Of a stretch of 64,000 nucleotides of DNA, positions 53,843 through 60,739 are shown piece by piece (the first letter of the stretch is position 1; each line of letters starts with the position of its first letter). Source of the stretch: Escherichia coli O127:H6 str. E2348/69 (GTDB lineage: Bacteria > Pseudomonadota > Gammaproteobacteria > Enterobacterales > Enterobacteriaceae); NCBI RefSeq assembly GCF_000026545.1, contig NC_011601.1; one strand, 5' to 3'. The position numbers were made by a program, and so were the translations under genes. A model generated the notes under the pieces. It was not told the DNA's origin, made no database searches, and saw only the letters and a list, made by a program, of their open reading frames with translations.

Positions 53843-56800
53843 ATGGGTAAAGGCAGCAGTAAGGGGCATACCCCGCGCGAAGCGAAGGACAACCTGAAAT
53901 CCACGCAGTTGCTGAGTGTGATTGATGCCATCAGCGAAGGGCCGATTGAAGGTCCGGTGGATGGATTAAAAAGCGTGCTGCTGAACAGTACGCCGGTGCT
54001 GGACAGTGAAGGTAATACCAACATCTCCGGTGTCACGGTGGTGTTCCGGGCCGGTGAGCAGGAGCAGACACCGCCGGAGGGATTTGAATCCTCCGGCTCT
54101 GAGACGGTGCTGGGTACGGAAGTGAAATACGACACGCCGATCACCCGCACCATCACGTCGGCAAACATCGATCGTCTGCGCTTTACTTTCGGTGTGCAGG
54201 CACTGGTGGAAACCACCTCAAAGGGGGACCGGAATCCGTCGGAAGTCCGCCTGCTGGTTCAGATACAGCGTAACGGTGGCTGGGTGACGGAAAAAGACAT
54301 CACCATTAAGGGTAAAACCACCTCGCAGTATCTGGCCTCGGTGGTGGTGGATAACCTGCCGCCGCGCCCGTTTAATATCCGGATGCGCAGGATGACGCCG
54401 GACAGCACCACAGACCAGCTGCAGAACAAAACGCTCTGGTCGTCATACACCGAAATCATCGATGTGAAACAGTGCTACCCGAACACGGCACTGGTCGGCG
54501 TGCAGGTGGACTCGGAGCAGTTCGGCAGCCAGCAGGTGAGCCGTAATTATCATCTGCGCGGGCGTATTCTGCAGGTGCCGTCGAACTATAACCCGCAGAC
54601 GCGGCAATACAGCGGTATCTGGGACGGAACGTTTAAGCCAGCATACAGCAACAACATGGCCTGGTGTCTGTGGGATATGCTGACCCATCCGCGCTACGGC
54701 ATGGGGAAACGTCTTGGTGCGGCGGATGTGGACAAATGGGCGCTGTATGTCATCGGCCAGCATTGCGATCAGTCGGTGCCGGACGGTTTTGGCGGCACGG
54801 AGCCGCGCATCACCTGTAATGCGTACCTGACCACACAGCGTAAGGCGTGGGATGTGCTCAGTGATTTCTGCTCTGCGATGCGCTGTATGCCGGTATGGAA
54901 CGGGCAGACGCTGACGTTCGTGCAGGACCGGCCATCGGATAAGGTGTGGACCTATAACCGCAGTAATGTGGTGATGCCGGATGATGGCGCGCCGTTCCGC
55001 TACAGCTTCAGCGCCCTGAAAGACCGCCATAATGCCGTTGAGGTGAACTGGACTGACCCGGATAACGGCTGGGAGACGGCGACAGAGCTTGTTGAAGATA
55101 CGCAGGCCATTCTCCGTTACGGTCGTAACGTCACGAAGATGGATGCCTTTGGCTGTACCAGCCGGGGGCAGGCGCACCGCGCCGGGCTGTGGCTGATTAA
55201 AACAGAACTGCTGGAAACGCAGACCGTGGACTTCAGCGTGGGTGCCGAAGGGCTTCGCCATGTACCGGGCGATGTCATTGAAATCTGCGATGATGACTAT
55301 GCCGGTATCAGCACCGGTGGTCGTGTGCTGGCGGTGAACAGCCAGACCCGGACGCTGACGCTCGACCGTGAAATCACGCTGCCATCCTCCGGTACCACGC
55401 TGATAAGCCTGGTTGACGGAAGTGGCAATCCGGTCAGCGTGGAGGTTCAGTCCGTCACCGACGGCGTGAAGGTAAAAGTGAGCCGTGTTCCTGACGGTGT
55501 TGCTGAATACAGCGTATGGGGGCTGAAGCTGCCGACGCTGCGCCAGCGACTGTTCCGCTGCGTGAGTATCCGTGAGAACGACGACGGCACGTATGCCATC
55601 ACCGCCGTGCAGCATGTGCCGGAAAAAGAGGCCATCGTGGATAACGGGGCGCACTTTGACGGCGAACAGAGTGGCACGGTGAACGGTGTCACGCCGCCAG
55701 CGGTGCAGCACCTGACTGCCGAAGTCACTGCAGACAGCGGGGAGTATCAGGTGCTGGCTCGATGGGACACGCCGAAGGTGGTGAAGGGCGTGAGCTTCCT
55801 GCTCCGTCTGACCGTGACAGCGGATGACGGCAGTGAGCGGCTGGTCAGCACGGCCCGGACGACGGAAACCACATACCGCTTCACGCAACTGGCGCTGGGG
55901 AACTACAGGCTGACGGTCCGGGCGGTAAATGCGTGGGGGCAGCAGGGCGATCCGGCATCGGTATCGTTCCGGATTGCGGCACCGGCAGCGCCTGTCACTA
56001 TTGAACTGATACCAGGGTATTTTCAGATAACAGCGGTCCCGAAACTGGCTGTATATGACCCGACGGTGCAGTTTGAGTTCTGGTTCTCGGAAAAGCGGAT
56101 TATCGATATCAGGCAGGTTGAAACCAGCGCGCGTTATCTTGGTACGGCGCTGTACTGGATAGCCGCCAGTAGCAATATTAAGCCGGGTTATGATTATTAC
56201 TTTTATATCCGCAGCGTGAACACCGTAGGTAAATCGGCATTTGTGGAGGCCGTCGGTCGGGCGAGCGATGATGCGGAAGGTTATCTGAATTTTTATAAAG
56301 GGTTGATCAATAAAACGCATCTCGGCAAGGAACTGCTGGAAAACTTTGAGCTGACGGAAGATAACGCCAGCAAACTGGAGGAGTTTTCGAAAGAGTGGAA
56401 GGACGCTAACGATAAATGGAATGCCATGTGGGGCGTCAAACTTGAGCAGACCAAAGACGGCAAACATTATGTCGCGGGTATTGGCCTCAGCATGGAGGAC
56501 ACGGAGGAAGGCAAGCTGAGCCAGTTTCTGGTTGCCGCTAACCGTATCGCGTTTATTGACCCGGCAAACGGGAATGAAACGCCGATGTTTGTGGCGCAGG
56601 GCAACCAGATATTCATGAATGACGTGTTCCTGAAACGCCTGACGGCCCCCACCATTACCAGCGGTGGCAATCCACCGGCATTTTCCCTGACACCGGACGG
56701 AAAGCTGACTGCTAAAAATGCGGATATCAGTGGCAGTGTGAATGCGAACGCCGGGACGCTCAACAACGTCACGGTAAATGAAAACTGTACGATTAAGGGC

Positions 56801-57256
56801 ATGCTGGAGGCGACTCAGGTCAGAGGTGACTTCGTTAAAGCTGTATCCAAATCATTTCCGAAACAGGCTGGTACGTGGGGTAACACGGAAACACCAAACG
56901 GGACGGTTACAGTCACCATCAGCGATGATCATAACTTTGACCGTCAAATCATTATTCCGCCCATTATCTTTAACGGAATAGCGTATAGCTATCCGGGAAG
57001 TGGTAATAACCCGGGAGGTACAAGTTACACGGGTTATGGTTTTGAAGTTCGCAAAAACGGTGTATTAATCGCATCCAGAGAAACTAAAGGGGCCATTCCC
57101 GGTAGTTACAGTGCAGTTATTGATATGCCTAGTGGTGGTGGTAGCGTCACTCTGGAGTTTAAGATTTTCCAGAAAGGCAATCAGGGGGCAGGCAATATCA
57201 CCGACTGTACGGTGATTGTGACCAAAAAAGCGGCTTCCGGCATCAGTATTCGTTGA
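53843..57256 (+). CDS. J: Host-specificity/tail tip protein gpJ-like
   Basis: 1137 aa, lambda J-like size and position, fibronectin-type repeats. Confidence 0.9.
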
Positions 57257-57275
57257 AATTGTTATAACCCATATA

Positions 57276-57303
57276 AGGGCACCAGAAATGGTGCCTTTTT
57301 TAT
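57276..57303 (+). terminator. Rho-independent terminator downstream of J
   Basis: agggcacc...ggtgcct stem followed by T-run. Confidence 0.75.
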
Positions 57304-57325
57304 TGCAGAAAAGCGAGAGGTAATT

Positions 57326-57925
57326 ATGCGTAAAGTTTGTGCAGCCATTTTGTCCGCAGCCATCTGTCTGTCCGTATCCGGTGCGCCTGCATGGGCGTCT
57401 GAACATCAGTCCACACTGAGCGCGGGGTATCTTCATGCCCGGACGAACGCTCCCGGTAGCGATAATCTTAACGGGATTAACGTGAAATACCGTTATGAAT
57501 TTACGGACACGCTGGGGCTGGTGACGTCATTCAGCTATGCAGGAGACAAGAATCGCCAGCTTACCCGTTACAGCGATACCCGCTGGCATGAAGATTCCGT
57601 GCGTAACCGCTGGTTCAGCGTAATGGCGGGGCCGTCTGTGCGCGTGAATGAATGGTTCAGCGCGTATGCGATGGCGGGTGTGGCTTACAGCCGTGTGTCG
57701 ACTTTCTCCGGGGATTATCTTCGCGTAACTGACAACAAGGGGAAAACGCACGATGTGCTGACCGGAAGTGATGACGGTCGCCACAGCGACACCTCTCTGG
57801 CGTGGGGAGCTGGCGTGCAGTTTAACCCGACCGAATCCGTGGCCATTGATATTGCTTATGAAGGCTCCGGCAGTGGCGACTGGCGCACTGACGGTTTCAT
57901 CGTGGGTGTCGGTTATAAATTCTGA
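57326..57925 (+). CDS. lom: Outer-membrane protein Lom (Ail/Lom family beta-barrel)
   Basis: Signal peptide, beta-barrel pattern ending ...[10 protein letters not shown]; position after J as in lambda. Confidence 0.88.
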
Positions 57926-57951
57926 TTAGCCAGGTAACACAGTGTTATGAC

Positions 57952-57978
57952 AGCCCGCCGGTTCAGGCGGGCTTTTTT
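57952..57978 (+). terminator. Rho-independent terminator downstream of lom
   Basis: gcccgccggttcaggcgggc stem-loop followed by T6. Confidence 0.75.
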
Positions 57979-57983
57979 GTGAG

Positions 57984-59303
57984 GTGAATATGGCAGTAAA
58001 GATTTCAGGTGTACTGAAAGACGGCACAGGAAAACCGGTACAGAACTGCACAATCCAGCTGAAAGCAAAACGTAACAGTACCACGGTGGTGGTGAACACG
58101 GTGGCCTCAGAAAATCCGGATGAAGCCGGGCGTTACAGCATGGATGTTGAGTATGGCCAGTACAGCGTCACCCTGCTGGTTGAAGGTTTTCCTCCTTCGC
58201 ATGCCGGGACCATCACCGTGTATGAAGATTCTCAGCCGGGTACGCTGAATGATTTTCTCGGTGCCATGTCGGAGGATGACGTCCGTCCGGAGGCACTGCG
58301 TCGCTTTGAACAAATGGTGGAAGAGGCAGCGCGTCACGCCGGGGAGGCGAAGAAGAATGCCGGAGAGGCGGAGACGTCAGCGAGGAATGCCGGCATATCA
58401 GCCAGTCAGGCAGAAGAGAGCGCGGCAAATGCTGACACTTCAGCAGGGGAGGCATCGGAGTCAGCCCGGCAGGCGGCAGAAAGTGCAGCCGCTGCAAAGA
58501 AGTCAGAGGAAGCGTCCTCGTCCTCGGCCTCTGAGGCCGCTCAAAAAGCCAGTGAGTCATTACAAAGTGCAGCAGATGCTGAGTTGTCAAAAAAGACGGC
58601 AGAAAGTGCAGCCGGTAATGCAGCCAGGGATGCAACGACCGCAGCAGAAAAAGCCCGGGAGTCAGCAGAAAGCGCACAGTCAGCGGAACAAAGCAGGATA
58701 GCGGCGGAAGACGCCGTAAACCGAATCCCCACCGTGGTGGGACCTCCCGGGCCAAAGGGAGAACCGGGGCCCGCGGGTCCTCAGGGGCCGAAGGGAGATA
58801 AAGGAGAGCGTGGCGACACCGGTCCTGTCGGGGCAACCGGTGAGCGGGGACCGGCAGGTGATGCTGGTCCGGCAGGCCCGCAGGGGCCGAAAGGCGACAG
58901 GGGAGAGCGGGGAGAGACCGGTCTGACGGGAAATGCAGGTCCACAGGGTCCAAAGGGAGATACCGGTGCGGCAGGTCCGGCAGGCCCACAGGGACCGAAA
59001 GGAGAAACAGGTGCGGCTGGCCCGGTGGGGGCAACCGGACCTCAGGGACCAAAGGGCGACCCGGGGGAGACACAAATCCGTTTTCGTCTGGGGCCGGCGA
59101 GCATTATTGAGACAAACAGCAATGGCTGGTTCCCGGGTACAGATGGTGCGCTCATCACCGGACTGACCTTTCTTGACCCCAAAGATGCCACACAGGTTCA
59201 GGGGCTGTTTCAGCATTTGCAGGTCAGGTTTGGTGACGGGCCGTGGCAGGATGTTAAGGGGCTGGATGAAGTGGGCAGTGATACAGGCAGAACAGGAGAA
59301 TGA
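57984..59303 (+). CDS. stf: Side tail fibre protein (Stf-like) with collagen-like Gly-X-Y repeats
   Basis: N-terminus [26 protein letters not shown]... matches lambda Stf; central [26 protein letters not shown]... collagen-like tract. Confidence 0.88.
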
Positions 59304-59304
59304 C

Positions 59305-59574
59305 ATGAACGTACTAAAAAAACTTATGCAGCGTCTGTGCGGGTACGGAAAGCATGATGACCGTGAACACGGGGAGTTACTTACAGCACAACTGCGTCTG
59401 GGGCCGGCAGACATCCTGGAGTCAGATGAGAATGGTATTATTCCGGAGCAGGCCAGGGTAATCACGCAGGTGGTGATACTGGATACAGATAAAAAGCAGA
59501 TACAGTGTGTGGTAAGACCGCTGCAAATCCTGCGTGCTGACGGGACGTGGGAAAATATTGGCGGGATGAAGTAA
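59305..59574 (+). CDS. Hypothetical tail-fibre-associated protein
   Basis: 89-aa ORF starting 2 nt after the stf stop; central segment resembles the Stf C-terminal segment (LRLGPADILESDENG vs [15 protein letters not shown]). Confidence 0.5.
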   Translation: MNVLKKLMQRLCGYGKHDDREHGELLTAQLRLGPADILESDENGIIPEQARVITQVVILDTDKKQIQCVVRPLQILRADGTWENIGGMK

Positions 59575-59590
59575 CCCGACGGGTTCACAA

Positions 59591-59616
59591 AAACCGGAGT
59601 CCGGCTCCGGTTTTTG
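59591..59616 (+). terminator. Rho-independent terminator
   Basis: ccggagtccggctccgg stem-loop followed by T5. Confidence 0.7.
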
Positions 59617-59617
59617 T

Positions 59618-59952
59618 TGTCATGTCCGGTGGATGTTTGTTATGACTCCCTATATTTCCAGACATCTGTTATCACTTAACCCATTACAAGCCCGCTGCCG
59701 CAGATATTCCCGTGGCGAGCGATAACCCAGCGCACTATGCGGATGCCATTCGTTATAATGCTCGAACGCCTCTGCAAGGTTCTTTGCTGCCGTTAACCCG
59801 TCTGGTTTAGGCATGATACTGATGTAGTCACGCTTTATCGTTTTCACGAAGCTCTCTGCTATGCCGTTACTCTCCGGACTCCGCACCGCCGTGTTCTTCG
59901 GTTCAAGCCCCAACATCCGGGCAAACTGCCGTGTTTCATTAGCCCGGTAGCA
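59618..59952 (-). mobile_element. IS2 remnant (3' end of the insD/orfB transposase gene and right end only)
   Basis: Minus-strand translation ...[43 protein letters not shown]...[29 protein letters not shown] equals the IS2 InsD C-terminus as recalled; no upstream part of the IS present. Confidence 0.75.
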
Positions 59953-60507
59953 CGGACCATAACAATTTATAATCTGCTGGCCGGAACTAATGAATTTATT
60001 GGTGAAGGTGACGCATATATTCCGCCTCATACAGGTCTGCCAGCAAACAGTACCGATATTGCACCACCAGATATTCCTGCTGGCTTTGTGGCTGTTTTCA
60101 ACAGTGATGAGGCATCGTGGCATCTCGTTGAAGACCATCGGGGTAAAACGGTTTATGACGTAGCGTCAGGGGACGAGTTATTTATTTCTGAACTCGGTCC
60201 GTTACCGGAAAATGTTACCTGGTTATCGCCGGAAGGGGAGTTTCAGAAGTGGAACGGCACAGCCTGGGTGAAAGATGCAGAAGCAGAAAAACTGTTCCGG
60301 ATCCGGGAGGCGGAAGAAACAAAAAACAACCTGATGCAGGTAGCCAGTGAGCATATTGCGCCACTTCAGGATGCGGTAGATCTGGAAATCGCAACGGAGG
60401 AAGAAAACTCGTTGCTGGAAGCCTGGAAGAAGTATCGGGTGTTGCTGAACCGTGTTGATACATCAACTGCACCTGATATTGAGTGGCCGACTTCACCTGC
60501 AGAGTAA
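59953..60507 (+). pseudogene. tfa: Tail fibre assembly protein (tfa) lacking its first codons and start
   Basis: [87 protein letters not shown]... colinear with lambda Tfa from about residue 10; homology ends abruptly at the IS2 remnant. Confidence 0.8.
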
Positions 60508-60739
60508 TCAACGGCGCAGGGATGATATTTTGTGCTTGAAGTGCCTCCCCGACCATTCAGATAGTCGGGGAGGGGGTATTGGGATTATACGCAATCAGTT
60601 TTAGTAAAAGACCGAAGCTCTCGAAAAATCTTTCTCCAAAACCAGAATGCAATTGATTGATTTTGATAGGATCTATAACGCCGTTACCTTAAACGGCAAA
60701 ACCACTCAAAAACAAACCTAATGTATTGAATATAAAGGA

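Follow-up and report, generated by a model that had tools for sequence, protein, structure and literature searches.

The stretch of DNA analysed here (the window; 64,000 nucleotides, to which all positions refer) is a 100% match for the EPEC strain E2348/69 (O127:H6). Between potC and potB it carries a defective lambdoid prophage in which J and lom are followed by the side tail fibre gene stf and, directly after it, a small gene for a protein of 89 amino acids (Table 1). Because most of the head and tail genes are missing from this prophage, the present copy would be unable to act on virions of its own. The same pair of genes occurs in phage 434, in VT1-Sakai and in more than 140 phage records. 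The region singled out in a preliminary description of the sequence (58737-59303), which does cover the collagen tract and the C-terminal PfC domain of Stf but leaves the echoing open reading frame (ORF) outside, very likely belongs to a side tail fibre gene of the EPclA type, of which it is the distal part, lying beside its conserved partner gene. Given the 95% identity to characterised EPclA genes, the assignment of the fibre to that type appears unlikely to be refuted.

Table 1. Features of the fibre locus and its flanks, by position in the window
Feature	Position	Strand	Details
Terminator-like hairpin between lom and stf	57952..57973	+	8-bp stem, 7 G-C pairs, T-run
stf, EPclA-type collagen-like side tail fibre, 437 aa	57990..59303	+	ATG 57990; RefSeq WP_000279191.1
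PfN domain, aa 1-133, putative collar anchoring the fibre to the tail tip	57990..58388	+	PF08400, E=7.8e-70
PCoil, 116 aa, aa 135-250, Ala/Glu/Ser-rich	58392..58739	+	Predicted trimeric alpha-helical coiled coil
Collagen domain, 37 Gly-X-Y triplets without interruption, 111 aa, aa 251-361	58740..59072	+	PF01391, E=2.9e-18
PfC domain of Stf, aa 363-426, trimerisation domain and predicted distal knob	59076..59267	+	PF06820, E=3.5e-36, model 1-64 complete
DNA echo (family D4), copy 1, in the PfC part of stf	59085..59125	+	71% over 41 nt with copy 2
DNA echo (family D4), copy 2, in the small gene	59395-59435	+	71% over 41 nt with copy 1
Shine-Dalgarno GGAG within the end of stf	59295..59298	+	6 nt before the small-gene ATG; phage 434 RBS at the same place
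PfC-only gene, 89 aa, homologue of Sp5 ORF68	59305..59574	+	PF06820; phrog_576; RefSeq WP_001101709.1; NCBI name "phage tail fiber C-terminal domain-containing protein"
Intrinsic terminator-like hairpin ending the stf/small-gene unit	59587..59619	+	dG -22.9 kcal/mol, z=-5.0
IS2 fragment, 313 bp, 3' part of the transposase gene	59648..59960	-	97-98% identity to IS2 copies; rve_3 domain
Lambda-type tail fibre assembly gene tfa, 5'-truncated	59951..60507	+	PF02413 Caudo_TAP, E=2.2e-45

The phage 434 record has a terminator annotated at the equivalent of each of the two hairpins that bound the unit. The motif TGTTATGAC, just upstream of the first hairpin, was considered a putative promoter by Ghosh et al. 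(2012; PMC3368898); our promoter scan of 57200-60700 returned no sigma-70-like site. Downstream of the unit, the IS2 fragment, a pseudogene in the RefSeq annotation, is the scar of a rearrangement, and the truncated tfa, whose start is derived from the IS according to its translation and whose junction occurs in only two records, is a relic of another fibre module that lies outside the EPclA pair.

The collagen-type fibre and the duplicated tip domain are thus real, yet both had been noticed earlier and were already known, and because the prophage is defective and its genes are ordinary members of their families, nothing new is at stake for the window itself. What is added here is the near-obligate pairing of the two genes, the strong purifying selection on the PfC domain of the small gene, the age of the duplication and the apparent resemblance of the PfC fold to the tip of the Mu fibre. 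The fibre as such is understood. EPclA-type fibres are found in many lambdoid and Shiga-toxin phages, including the classic phage 434, and a single EHEC or EPEC genome often has several copies; their presence in toxin-phage genomes gives them a bearing on the spread of toxin and effector genes among E. coli strains.

Architecture of the side tail fibre

Stf consists of the same four parts, with the same lengths, as EPclA (e.g., ECs2717 of O157:H7 Sakai; PMC3368898), that is, 437 residues divided into PfN, a 116-aa PCoil, a 111-aa collagen domain and PfC at residues 363-426. Its gene shares 95% nucleotide identity with the copies in phage 434, VT1-Sakai (H0004) and many Stx phages, and the copies in the Sakai and Stx phages occupy the same genomic place after J and lom; in contrast to the EPclA of EHEC, the E2348/69 copy resides in a defective prophage of an EPEC strain and carries a few amino-acid substitutions, the structure being otherwise alike. 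An in-frame GTG is located at 57984, upstream of the stf start codon.

At the N terminus, the first 93 residues align with the Stf chain of Ur-lambda in PDB 9e7m (E=4.7e-52). The N-terminal collar domain of the lambda-type side fibre binds gpV/gpM in the virion (PMC12617516) and, by homology, the corresponding domain of Stf would be the collar that attaches the fibre to the tail tip. The length and composition of the PCoil, as read from the translation, agree with EPclA, in which this segment was reported to have a length that is a multiple of 7, to measure 116 aa in most copies and to trimerise (Ghosh et al. 2012; PMC3368898), the coiled coil being known from this homologue alone. Proteins with the EPclA architecture are homotrimeric dumbbells about 50-60 nm long. 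In recombinant ECs2717, three identical chains form a genuine collagen triple helix (CD maximum at 220 nm, Tm of about 42 C), recombinant PfC covering the same residue range is trimeric by SEC-MALLS, and within the trimeric dumbbell of EPclA the PfC domain both trimerises and, once the collagen triple helix has melted, nucleates it anew (Ghosh et al. 2012; PMC3368898). Judging from the roughly 95% nucleotide identity of its gene to EPclA-type stf genes such as VT1-Sakai H0004, the Stf of E2348/69 probably forms a triple-helical homotrimer as well.

The preliminary description had proposed a side tail fibre with a collagen-like tract, and the Pfam match to this tract bears it out; every peptide that it quoted is present as given. 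The run of Gly-X-Y triplets is uninterrupted, as it had said, but measures 111 residues in the translation rather than about 115. The coding DNA of the tract is triplet-periodic with 70% G+C, which agrees with its description as GC-rich, but it is less repetitive than that description implied: the repeats are degenerate, with no more than 60-75% identity within the 45-nt and 67-nt families, and no exact direct repeat inside the tract is longer than 14 nt. Two antisense ORFs on the minus strand across this tract (58213-59073 and 58680-59588) were attributed to the stop-poor GGN-CCN periodicity, as by-products.

How stable, then, is the length of the collagen domain? Repeat number is not invariant among relatives: lengths of 45, 81, 90, 93, 96, 108, 111 and 114 aa were found, differing by in-frame indels that sit at repeated GPQGPKG/AGP motifs, and variants of 63-144 aa had already been tabulated (Ghosh et al. 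2012, Table 3; PMC3368898). A tract said to be prone to slippage and recombination might be a hypermutable contingency locus, at which frequent slippage switches the length or the frame of the fibre as an adaptive phase variation, and such in-frame variants among close relatives, together with the G+C-rich periodicity, the broken stf frames of several draft-genome copies and the likewise broken "EPclA*" entries of Ghosh et al. (2012), would fit this idea. Nevertheless, we consider it highly unlikely. Exact internal repeats do not exceed 14 nt, homopolymer or short-unit tracts were not found in the collagen DNA, and the indels are large (3-30 aa) and confined to few motif pairs, as expected for rare unequal recombination; 62 of 76 distinct full-length genes encode exactly 111 aa despite synonymous divergence of about 10-19%, and 37 triplets appear to be a strongly preferred state. 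Degenerate DNA repeats combined with so dominant a length argue for occasional unequal recombination and against a hypermutable contingency tract; in all likelihood, the degenerate triplet repeats now and then recombine unequally but in frame, which changes the length.

A constrained partner gene carrying a second PfC domain

The ORF that follows stf had been noted as an echo of the Stf C terminus, and this similarity is clear at the protein level: BLASTP aligns the two PfC copies with 23 of 62 residues identical (37%; E=7e-14), and the whole 64-position model of PF06820 (Phage_fiber_C) is matched independently by Stf and by the 89-aa protein. At the DNA level the self-comparison returned the weaker echo listed in Table 1, with an exact run of 14 nt, CGTCTGGGGCCGGC. 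The ORF was correctly taken for a duplicated C-terminal module, but its start is the ATG at 59305 and not the TTG at 59173 of the mechanical ORF list. Its product consists of a 27-aa leader, with a short helix predicted at residues 3-12, and of PfC at residues 28-89 (nt 59386-59571), which is its sole domain (PF06820, E=2.7e-34); phrog_576 matches it over residues 1-89 of 89 (E=1.3e-58). The leader, MNVLKKLMQRLCG, was considered as a possible lipoprotein or signal peptide; on inspection it contains neither a hydrophobic core nor a lipobox.

The stop codon of stf (TGA, 59301-59303) and the ATG of the small gene are separated by a single nucleotide, an arrangement that appears suited to translational coupling, and the 89-aa protein would be made together with Stf. 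All 84 copies examined keep this TGAnATG spacing, 82 of them in combination with a length of 89 aa, and an intact small gene was present 3' of 72 of the 75 scorable PfC-ended fibre genes, which makes the two a near-obligate pair. A programmed frameshift joining them was rejected: the small ORF lies in the +1 frame, and what extends it to 59173 is simply stf read out of frame. No frameshift signal was found by Mondal et al. (2016; PMC5155283) either. The free PfC copy is under much stronger purifying selection (pN/pS 0.048) than the PfC domain of Stf (0.233), and the leader of the small gene stands at 0.295. The small ORF is conserved in hundreds of genomes, and a profile search of 1.84 billion representatives yielded 94 matches only, mostly Escherichia and Citrobacter fragments; multi-stretch matches in very long proteins (e.g., P0136) reflect CarboxypepD_reg-type repeats and were treated as spurious. 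In view of the BLASTP score, the end-to-end PF06820 matches in both proteins and this selection and conservation, the notion that chance or composition accounts for the echo and that the ORF is not a gene, which could have appealed to the shortness of the ORF and to the roughly 30 residues of similarity first quoted, is already refuted, and we leave it virtually no chance.

When a divergent module (L084) is compared with that of E2348/69, the small ORFs are 62% identical to each other and the fibre PfC domains 40%, whereas cross comparisons give 30-38%; the two copies therefore group by type, and the sequences point to paralogues that arose by an old duplication. One locus (L083) has stf, then a chimeric ORF composed of small-ORF residues 1-40 and the Stf PfC tail, and then the small ORF, which is the product expected of an unequal crossover between the PfC paralogues. 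Exchange between the paralogues is rare, to judge from their low identity (37%) and from the way they group by type in divergent modules.

Mondal et al. (2016; PMC5155283) proposed that recombination of this kind varies the fibre tip; the small ORF would then be chiefly a silent store of sequence, supplying stf with a spare C-terminal cassette, and not a working protein. This published hypothesis would account for the shared 41-nt stretch (71% identical, with its 14-nt exact core) and for the chimeric ORF. However, a cassette needs neither an ATG nor a Shine-Dalgarno sequence, an 89-codon frame or a constrained leader, all of which are conserved here, and the small gene is the least variable part of the module. 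With the divergence and type-wise grouping of the paralogues, and with no invertase or diversity-generating element found nearby, we regard the proposal as very unlikely.

The fibre tip and the role of the 89-aa protein

The preliminary description suggested a receptor-binding or chaperone module. In experiments, PfC is a domain of trimerisation and folding nucleation (PMC3368898), and receptor binding by it is putative. A sequence search of the PDB found no solved PfC structure, and with the 89-aa ORF as query it gave nothing credible (best match, bacterioferritin, E=0.22). The AF2 monomer model of the 89-aa protein has a mean pLDDT of 77.7, with 84-93 across the PfC domain; an attempt at a single-chain linked trimer, run with a 12-row alignment and with Gly-Ser linkers of 25 residues between the three copies, reached a pLDDT of only 27.7 and was discarded. 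Six of the top 10 BFVD matches to the model are annotated tail fibre proteins, the other four being unnamed, uncharacterised or YomR, and the predicted PfC fold appears similar to that of the distal tip in the tail fibre of phage Mu. Alignment of the PfC family with Mu S and S' by hhalign gave low probabilities, placing PfC on residues 269-325 of the 327 of S' at an E-value of 0.15, below significance, and supports only the location of the structural match. Because the fold predicted for PfC seems to match the very tip of the Mu fibre, at its C-terminal end, as well as other phage fibre proteins, we propose that PfC would form the distal knob of the fibre.

The small gene occupies a position that in sister fibres holds a tip partner, namely tfa in lambda and a gp38-type adhesin gene after the EPclD-type fibre of Stx2-converting phage 86. 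The lambda/Ur-lambda Stf-Tfa system shares with the present locus the collar domain, a trimeric side fibre, the place after J and lom and a small downstream gene, but its shaft is made of Phage_fiber_2 repeats and a gp37-like distal region without collagen, and its partner, which has no relationship to PfC, is a chaperone of the Caudo_TAP family (PF02413); the truncated tfa in E2348/69 is a relic of that kind. Phage 86 (gp21/gp22) likewise has a PfN-collagen fibre followed by a small tip-partner gene; in contrast, the C terminus of its fibre is an intramolecular chaperone domain (Peptidase_S74), and the fibre is not paralogous to gp22, which contains Gp38_N (PF21721), a tip-attachment domain that Pfam did not find in the 89-aa ORF. 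The Mu tip and its TfaMu (PDB 5YVQ, 8JU3), with their sub-threshold sequence relationship to PfC, differ in that the Mu fibres contain no collagen, Tfa stays bound to the tip and a free-standing copy of the tip domain is absent. A close counterpart of the small gene is ORF68 of phage Sp5 (phrog_576; PMC5155283), which has the same 89 aa with a single PF06820 domain and directly follows a PfC-ended collagen-like fibre gene (ORF67/ECs1228), although that fibre is of the EPclB type with two collagen domains and belongs to a short-tailed phage, whereas the E2348/69 fibre is an EPclA within a long-tailed, lambda-type tail module.

The 89-aa protein probably trimerises via its own PfC domain, and it is most likely an accessory partner at the fibre tip, perhaps a cap, an adhesin or an assembly helper. 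Mondal et al. (2016; PMC5155283) noted the PfC-only ORF68 and listed it among the late genes that are non-essential on K-12, whereas deletion of the essential fibre gene ORF67 abolishes infectivity; this result was obtained with a short-tailed phage, an EPclB fibre and one rough laboratory host, and it may not transfer to long-tailed EPclA phages. A partner at the tip may be useful in nature, yet dispensable for infection of K-12. The small gene is among the most constrained of the module, yet dispensable in the sole laboratory test.

Might the 89-aa protein instead be a dedicated and required assembly chaperone, an equivalent of Tfa or Mu gpU that folds or trimerises the PfC tip and so zips up the collagen helix? 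Its gene fills the tfa slot directly 3' of stf with apparent translational coupling, the protein bears the name "tail fiber assembly chaperone" in the record of phage 434, where the EPclA module has no Caudo_TAP gene of its own, and the part of the Mu fibre that is bound by TfaMu is the tip, an apparent fold relative of PfC. The combination of a variable leader with a conserved C-terminal oligomerisation domain also recalls the two-domain layout of Tfa proteins, reportedly described by North et al. in 2019. Nonetheless, an essential chaperone is contradicted by EPclA expressed alone in laboratory E. coli, which gave correct trimers with a collagen CD signal, and by isolated PfC, which trimerises unaided (PMC3368898), as well as by the non-essential listing of ORF68 beside a fibre gene whose deletion abolishes infectivity (PMC5155283). 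The 89-aa ORF also has no PF02413 similarity in Pfam, and we find a required chaperone improbable.

We tentatively raise a further reading, on balance unlikely, in which the accessory protein belongs to an undescribed class, a free-standing mimic of the trimerisation/tip domain of the fibre that stacks on the PfC knob or exchanges into it. If this were true, it might control chain registration or cap or uncap the receptor-binding surface, unlike Tfa chaperones and gp38 adhesins, and the link to the Mu tip, weak but consistent, would connect a widespread fold of fibre tips with a very small Pfam family confined to Escherichia. Whether the 89-aa protein caps, extends or assembles the tip matters for host recognition by these phages and, because PfC already serves as a folding nucleus, knowledge of its partner might be useful for engineered collagen-like trimeric scaffolds. 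As regards a role as the tip receptor-binding protein, receptor-binding tips are usually variable, whereas the 89-aa protein is nearly invariant.

Architecture and prophage setting of the side tail fibre

The collagen-like tract of the side tail fibre gene stf and the sequence echo in the small gene directly 3' of it are both real and far beyond chance. The tract consists of 37 unbroken Gly-X-Y triplets (Pfam Collagen, E=2.9e-18), although translation, which confirmed the peptides quoted in the preliminary description, gives a length of 111 aa instead of the about 115 residues mentioned there. The Stf C-terminus is echoed in the next ORF, as had been noticed, at 23/62 identities (E=7e-14), and the PF06820 (Phage_fiber_C) model is matched over its whole length by both Stf (E=3.5e-36) and the small-gene product (E=2.7e-34); at the DNA level the echo is a 41-nt stretch of 71% identity. 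The N-terminal 93 residues of Stf match the Ur-lambda Stf chain of PDB 9e7m (E=4.7e-52), the N-terminal domain of which is the collar holding the trimeric side fibres on gpV/gpM at the tail tip (PMC12617516).

We noted that Stf has, residue for residue, the same architecture as EPclA, a class of prophage collagen-like fibre protein that Ghosh et al. 2012 defined (length 437 aa, PCoil 116 aa, Col 111 aa, PfC at 363-426) and found in most lambdoid prophages of O157:H7 (PMC3368898). With all the sequence-defined features of this class, Stf is, as judged from its sequence, a plain EPclA member. Recombinant EPclA forms trimers that give the CD signature of collagen and melt with a Tm of 42 °C; in EM it appears as a dumbbell ~50-60 nm long. 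It contains two trimerisation modules, PCoil and PfC, the latter of which accounts for the fast refolding of the triple helix after melting (PMC3368898).

Features of the stf region (window positions; residues where stated)
Feature	Position	Remarks
J	53843-57256	
lom	57326-57925	terminator between lom and stf
stf	57990-59303	
Stf PfN	residues 1-133	PF08400
Stf segment after PfN		116 residues, Ala/Glu/Ser-rich
Stf collagen domain	58740-59072	111 residues
Stf PfC	residues 363-426	PF06820
small gene	59305-59574	89 codons
strong terminator hairpin	59587-59619	dG -22.9 kcal/mol, z=-5.0
IS2 fragment	from 59648, minus strand	313 bp; adjoins tfa, both 3' of hairpin
tfa, lambda-type	up to 60507	5'-truncated; directly before potB

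The window matches chromosomal sequence of enteropathogenic E. coli E2348/69 at 100% identity, and a lambdoid prophage inserted between potC and potB (~20.1-60.7 kb) has the stf region at its right-hand end. At ~52789-53237, a partial S49 peptidase gene (lambda gpC-like) abuts a partial NlpC/P60 gene (gpK-like), which indicates that the head genes past the portal and most of the tail genes (V, G, T, H, M, L) have been deleted. I, J, lom, stf and the small ORF are still intact in this defective prophage; because most head and tail genes are lost, the stf/small-gene copy found here cannot equip virions of its own. In the IS2/tfa region (59648-60507), the annotated start of tfa is IS-derived. The junction of the two, seen in no more than 2 records among the complete E. 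coli genomes, resembles a scar left when the EPclA module, or IS activity, displaced an older stf-tfa module. The prophage body (~20100-52000; NZ_CP059840.2 2862000-2894589) carries IS200C, ISEc13 and IS481-family insertions, a frameshifted second integrase, tRNA-Arg, tRNA-Ile, iraM, hokD, a SASA-family carbohydrate esterase gene and a Qin/Rac-like dicB/dicC/ydfABC cluster.

Length variation in the collagen tract

The collagen-coding DNA had been regarded as repetitive, GC-rich and prone to slippage and recombination. Its G+C content is indeed 70%, but the repetitiveness is weaker than claimed, with 60-75% identity within the repeat families and no exact repeat above 14 nt inside the tract. 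Among 76 distinct full-length stf sequences, obtained from 160 loci sampled from IMG/VR, the length of the tract varies: it is 111 aa in 62, 108 aa in five, 81 aa in three, and 45, 90, 93, 96 or 114 aa in one sequence each, and in one further sequence it is interrupted (78 + 33 aa). Lengths of 63, 78, 81, 111, 114 and 144 aa had already been tabulated by Ghosh et al. 2012 (PMC3368898). The indels are all in frame and located at recurring GPQGPKG and AGP motifs. The tract is thus not of invariant length, the outcome that would have counted against the preliminary description, but a single length dominates; because 111 aa predominates although synonymous divergence is ~10-19%, the pattern fits rare unequal recombination together with selection for fibre length, and not a hypermutable tract. 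Two minus-strand ORFs that overlap the tract (58213-59073, 286 aa; 58680-59588, 302 aa) are most likely not genes but a consequence of the GGN/CCN periodicity, in which stop codons are scarce.

Conservation and history of the small gene

Earlier publications already cover the architecture, the variation in collagen length and the domain echo; what remains new is an unexplained, highly constrained paralogue of the fibre tip domain, to which we add here its near-obligate pairing with the fibre gene, strong purifying selection, an apparently old duplication, recombination between the paralogues and the tiny size of the PF06820 family. The small gene itself was noticed before as ORF68 of phage Sp5, where a frameshift signal was not found at ORF68 and where the fibre gene ORF67 (EPclB class) is essential, its product being located at the tail end (Mondal et al. 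2016, PMC5155283). By sequence, the small gene is an ordinary representative of this ORF68 / phrog_576 family. As candidates for its product, a Caudo_TAP chaperone and a gp38-type adhesin were both rejected, neither domain being found with Pfam.

Copies of the pair at ~95% identity are carried by phage 434, VT1-Sakai and over 140 phage records, as well as by 692 of 5426 complete E. coli genomes. In a search begun from the fibre C-terminus, an intact small gene was present at 72 of 75 scorable loci, and the pairing is thus almost obligate. Its start lies exactly 1 nt past the fibre stop codon (TGAnATG) in 84 copies, of which 82 have 89 codons. A GGAG stands 6 nt 5' of the ATG of the small gene. 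The small gene is under strong purifying selection, with a pN/pS of 0.048 in its PfC domain and 0.295 in its 27-aa leader, compared with 0.233 in the PfC and 0.44 in the PfN domain of Stf.

How might this paralogue have arisen? One divergent locus (L084; GCA_008387015.1, AAKHPG010000016.1, 110-974) encodes a 212-aa non-collagen fibre ending in PfC and then a 79-aa PfC-only ORF, the two overlapping by 14 nt; NleG-like and SopA-like effector genes lie downstream. Because identity is higher within each type (62% between the small ORFs, 40% between the fibre PfC domains) than across types (30-38%), the sequences indicate that the PfC duplication is old. In another locus (L083; GCA_005381265.1, BDKZ01000033.1, 1382-3246), stf (437 aa) is followed in tandem by a chimeric ORF of 92 aa and then by a normal 89-aa ORF. 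The chimera, which joins small-ORF residues 1-40 to the C-terminal part of Stf PfC, is the expected product of unequal crossover, and therefore the PfC paralogues can recombine.

Fold of PfC and possible role of the 89-aa protein

No solved PfC structure was found by PDB sequence searches. The AF2 monomer model of the 89-aa protein (mean pLDDT 77.7; 84-93 across the domain) predicts a small beta domain, preceded by a disordered linker and, at the N-terminus, a short helix. Six of its ten best matches among predicted viral structures are annotated tail fibre proteins of varied phages, the other four having no informative name, and a profile alignment, not significant by score alone, places PfC on residues 269-325 of the 327 of Mu S', the extreme distal tip. 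This moderate evidence suggests that PfC is a fibre-tip fold, which is consistent with the C-terminal knob of 7 nm that Ghosh et al. observed (PMC3368898).

In the most likely model, the following parts of which have direct support, the PfN collar anchors the Stf homotrimer to the tail tip, a predicted coiled coil and the 37-triplet collagen helix form the shaft, and PfC trimerises and nucleates folding of the helix from the C-terminus. The distal knob would be PfC, given the predicted-fold match to fibre tips. The 89-aa protein is probably made along with Stf, by co-translation, and its own PfC domain would allow it to trimerise.

In sister systems, the slot 3' of the fibre gene holds a tip partner, such as Tfa in lambda. 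In Stx2-converting phage 86 (L167, 7174-10056), the EPclD-type fibre gp21 has PfN, a long collagen region and, as an intramolecular chaperone domain, Peptidase_S74; the next two genes encode, in this order, a gp38-type adhesin with a Gp38_N domain and a Cor superinfection exclusion protein. We consider that the 89-aa protein is probably an accessory partner at the fibre tip. That it is an essential chaperone is unlikely, because EPclA folds alone (PMC3368898) and Sp5 ORF68 is listed among the non-essential late genes (PMC5155283). Mondal et al. suggested an intragenomic reservoir for tail fibre variation (PMC5155283); a purely silent reservoir is, however, unlikely, because the start codon, ribosome-binding site, length and amino-acid sequence of the small gene are all conserved.

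Phage 434 (L001, OL657226.1, 4757-7615) shares the EPclA fibre and the 89-aa gene; immediately 3' of the pair it has cargo resembling type III effectors (an NleB-like pseudogene, NleC-like genes and an NleH fragment) and an IS1414 fragment. Of 1.84 billion proteins, 94 cluster representatives belong to the PF06820 family, and their sources are essentially Escherichia, E. albertii and Citrobacter rodentium. A phage-type protein from the profile search (P0152, 565 aa) contains four tandem ~75-aa repeats followed by a collagen-like region, each repeat resembling the second half of PfC (VVVLDAD...GILRVRRADGTW..IPA; PF06820 positions 29-63 only), which suggests that PfC may have arisen from a smaller repeat unit.
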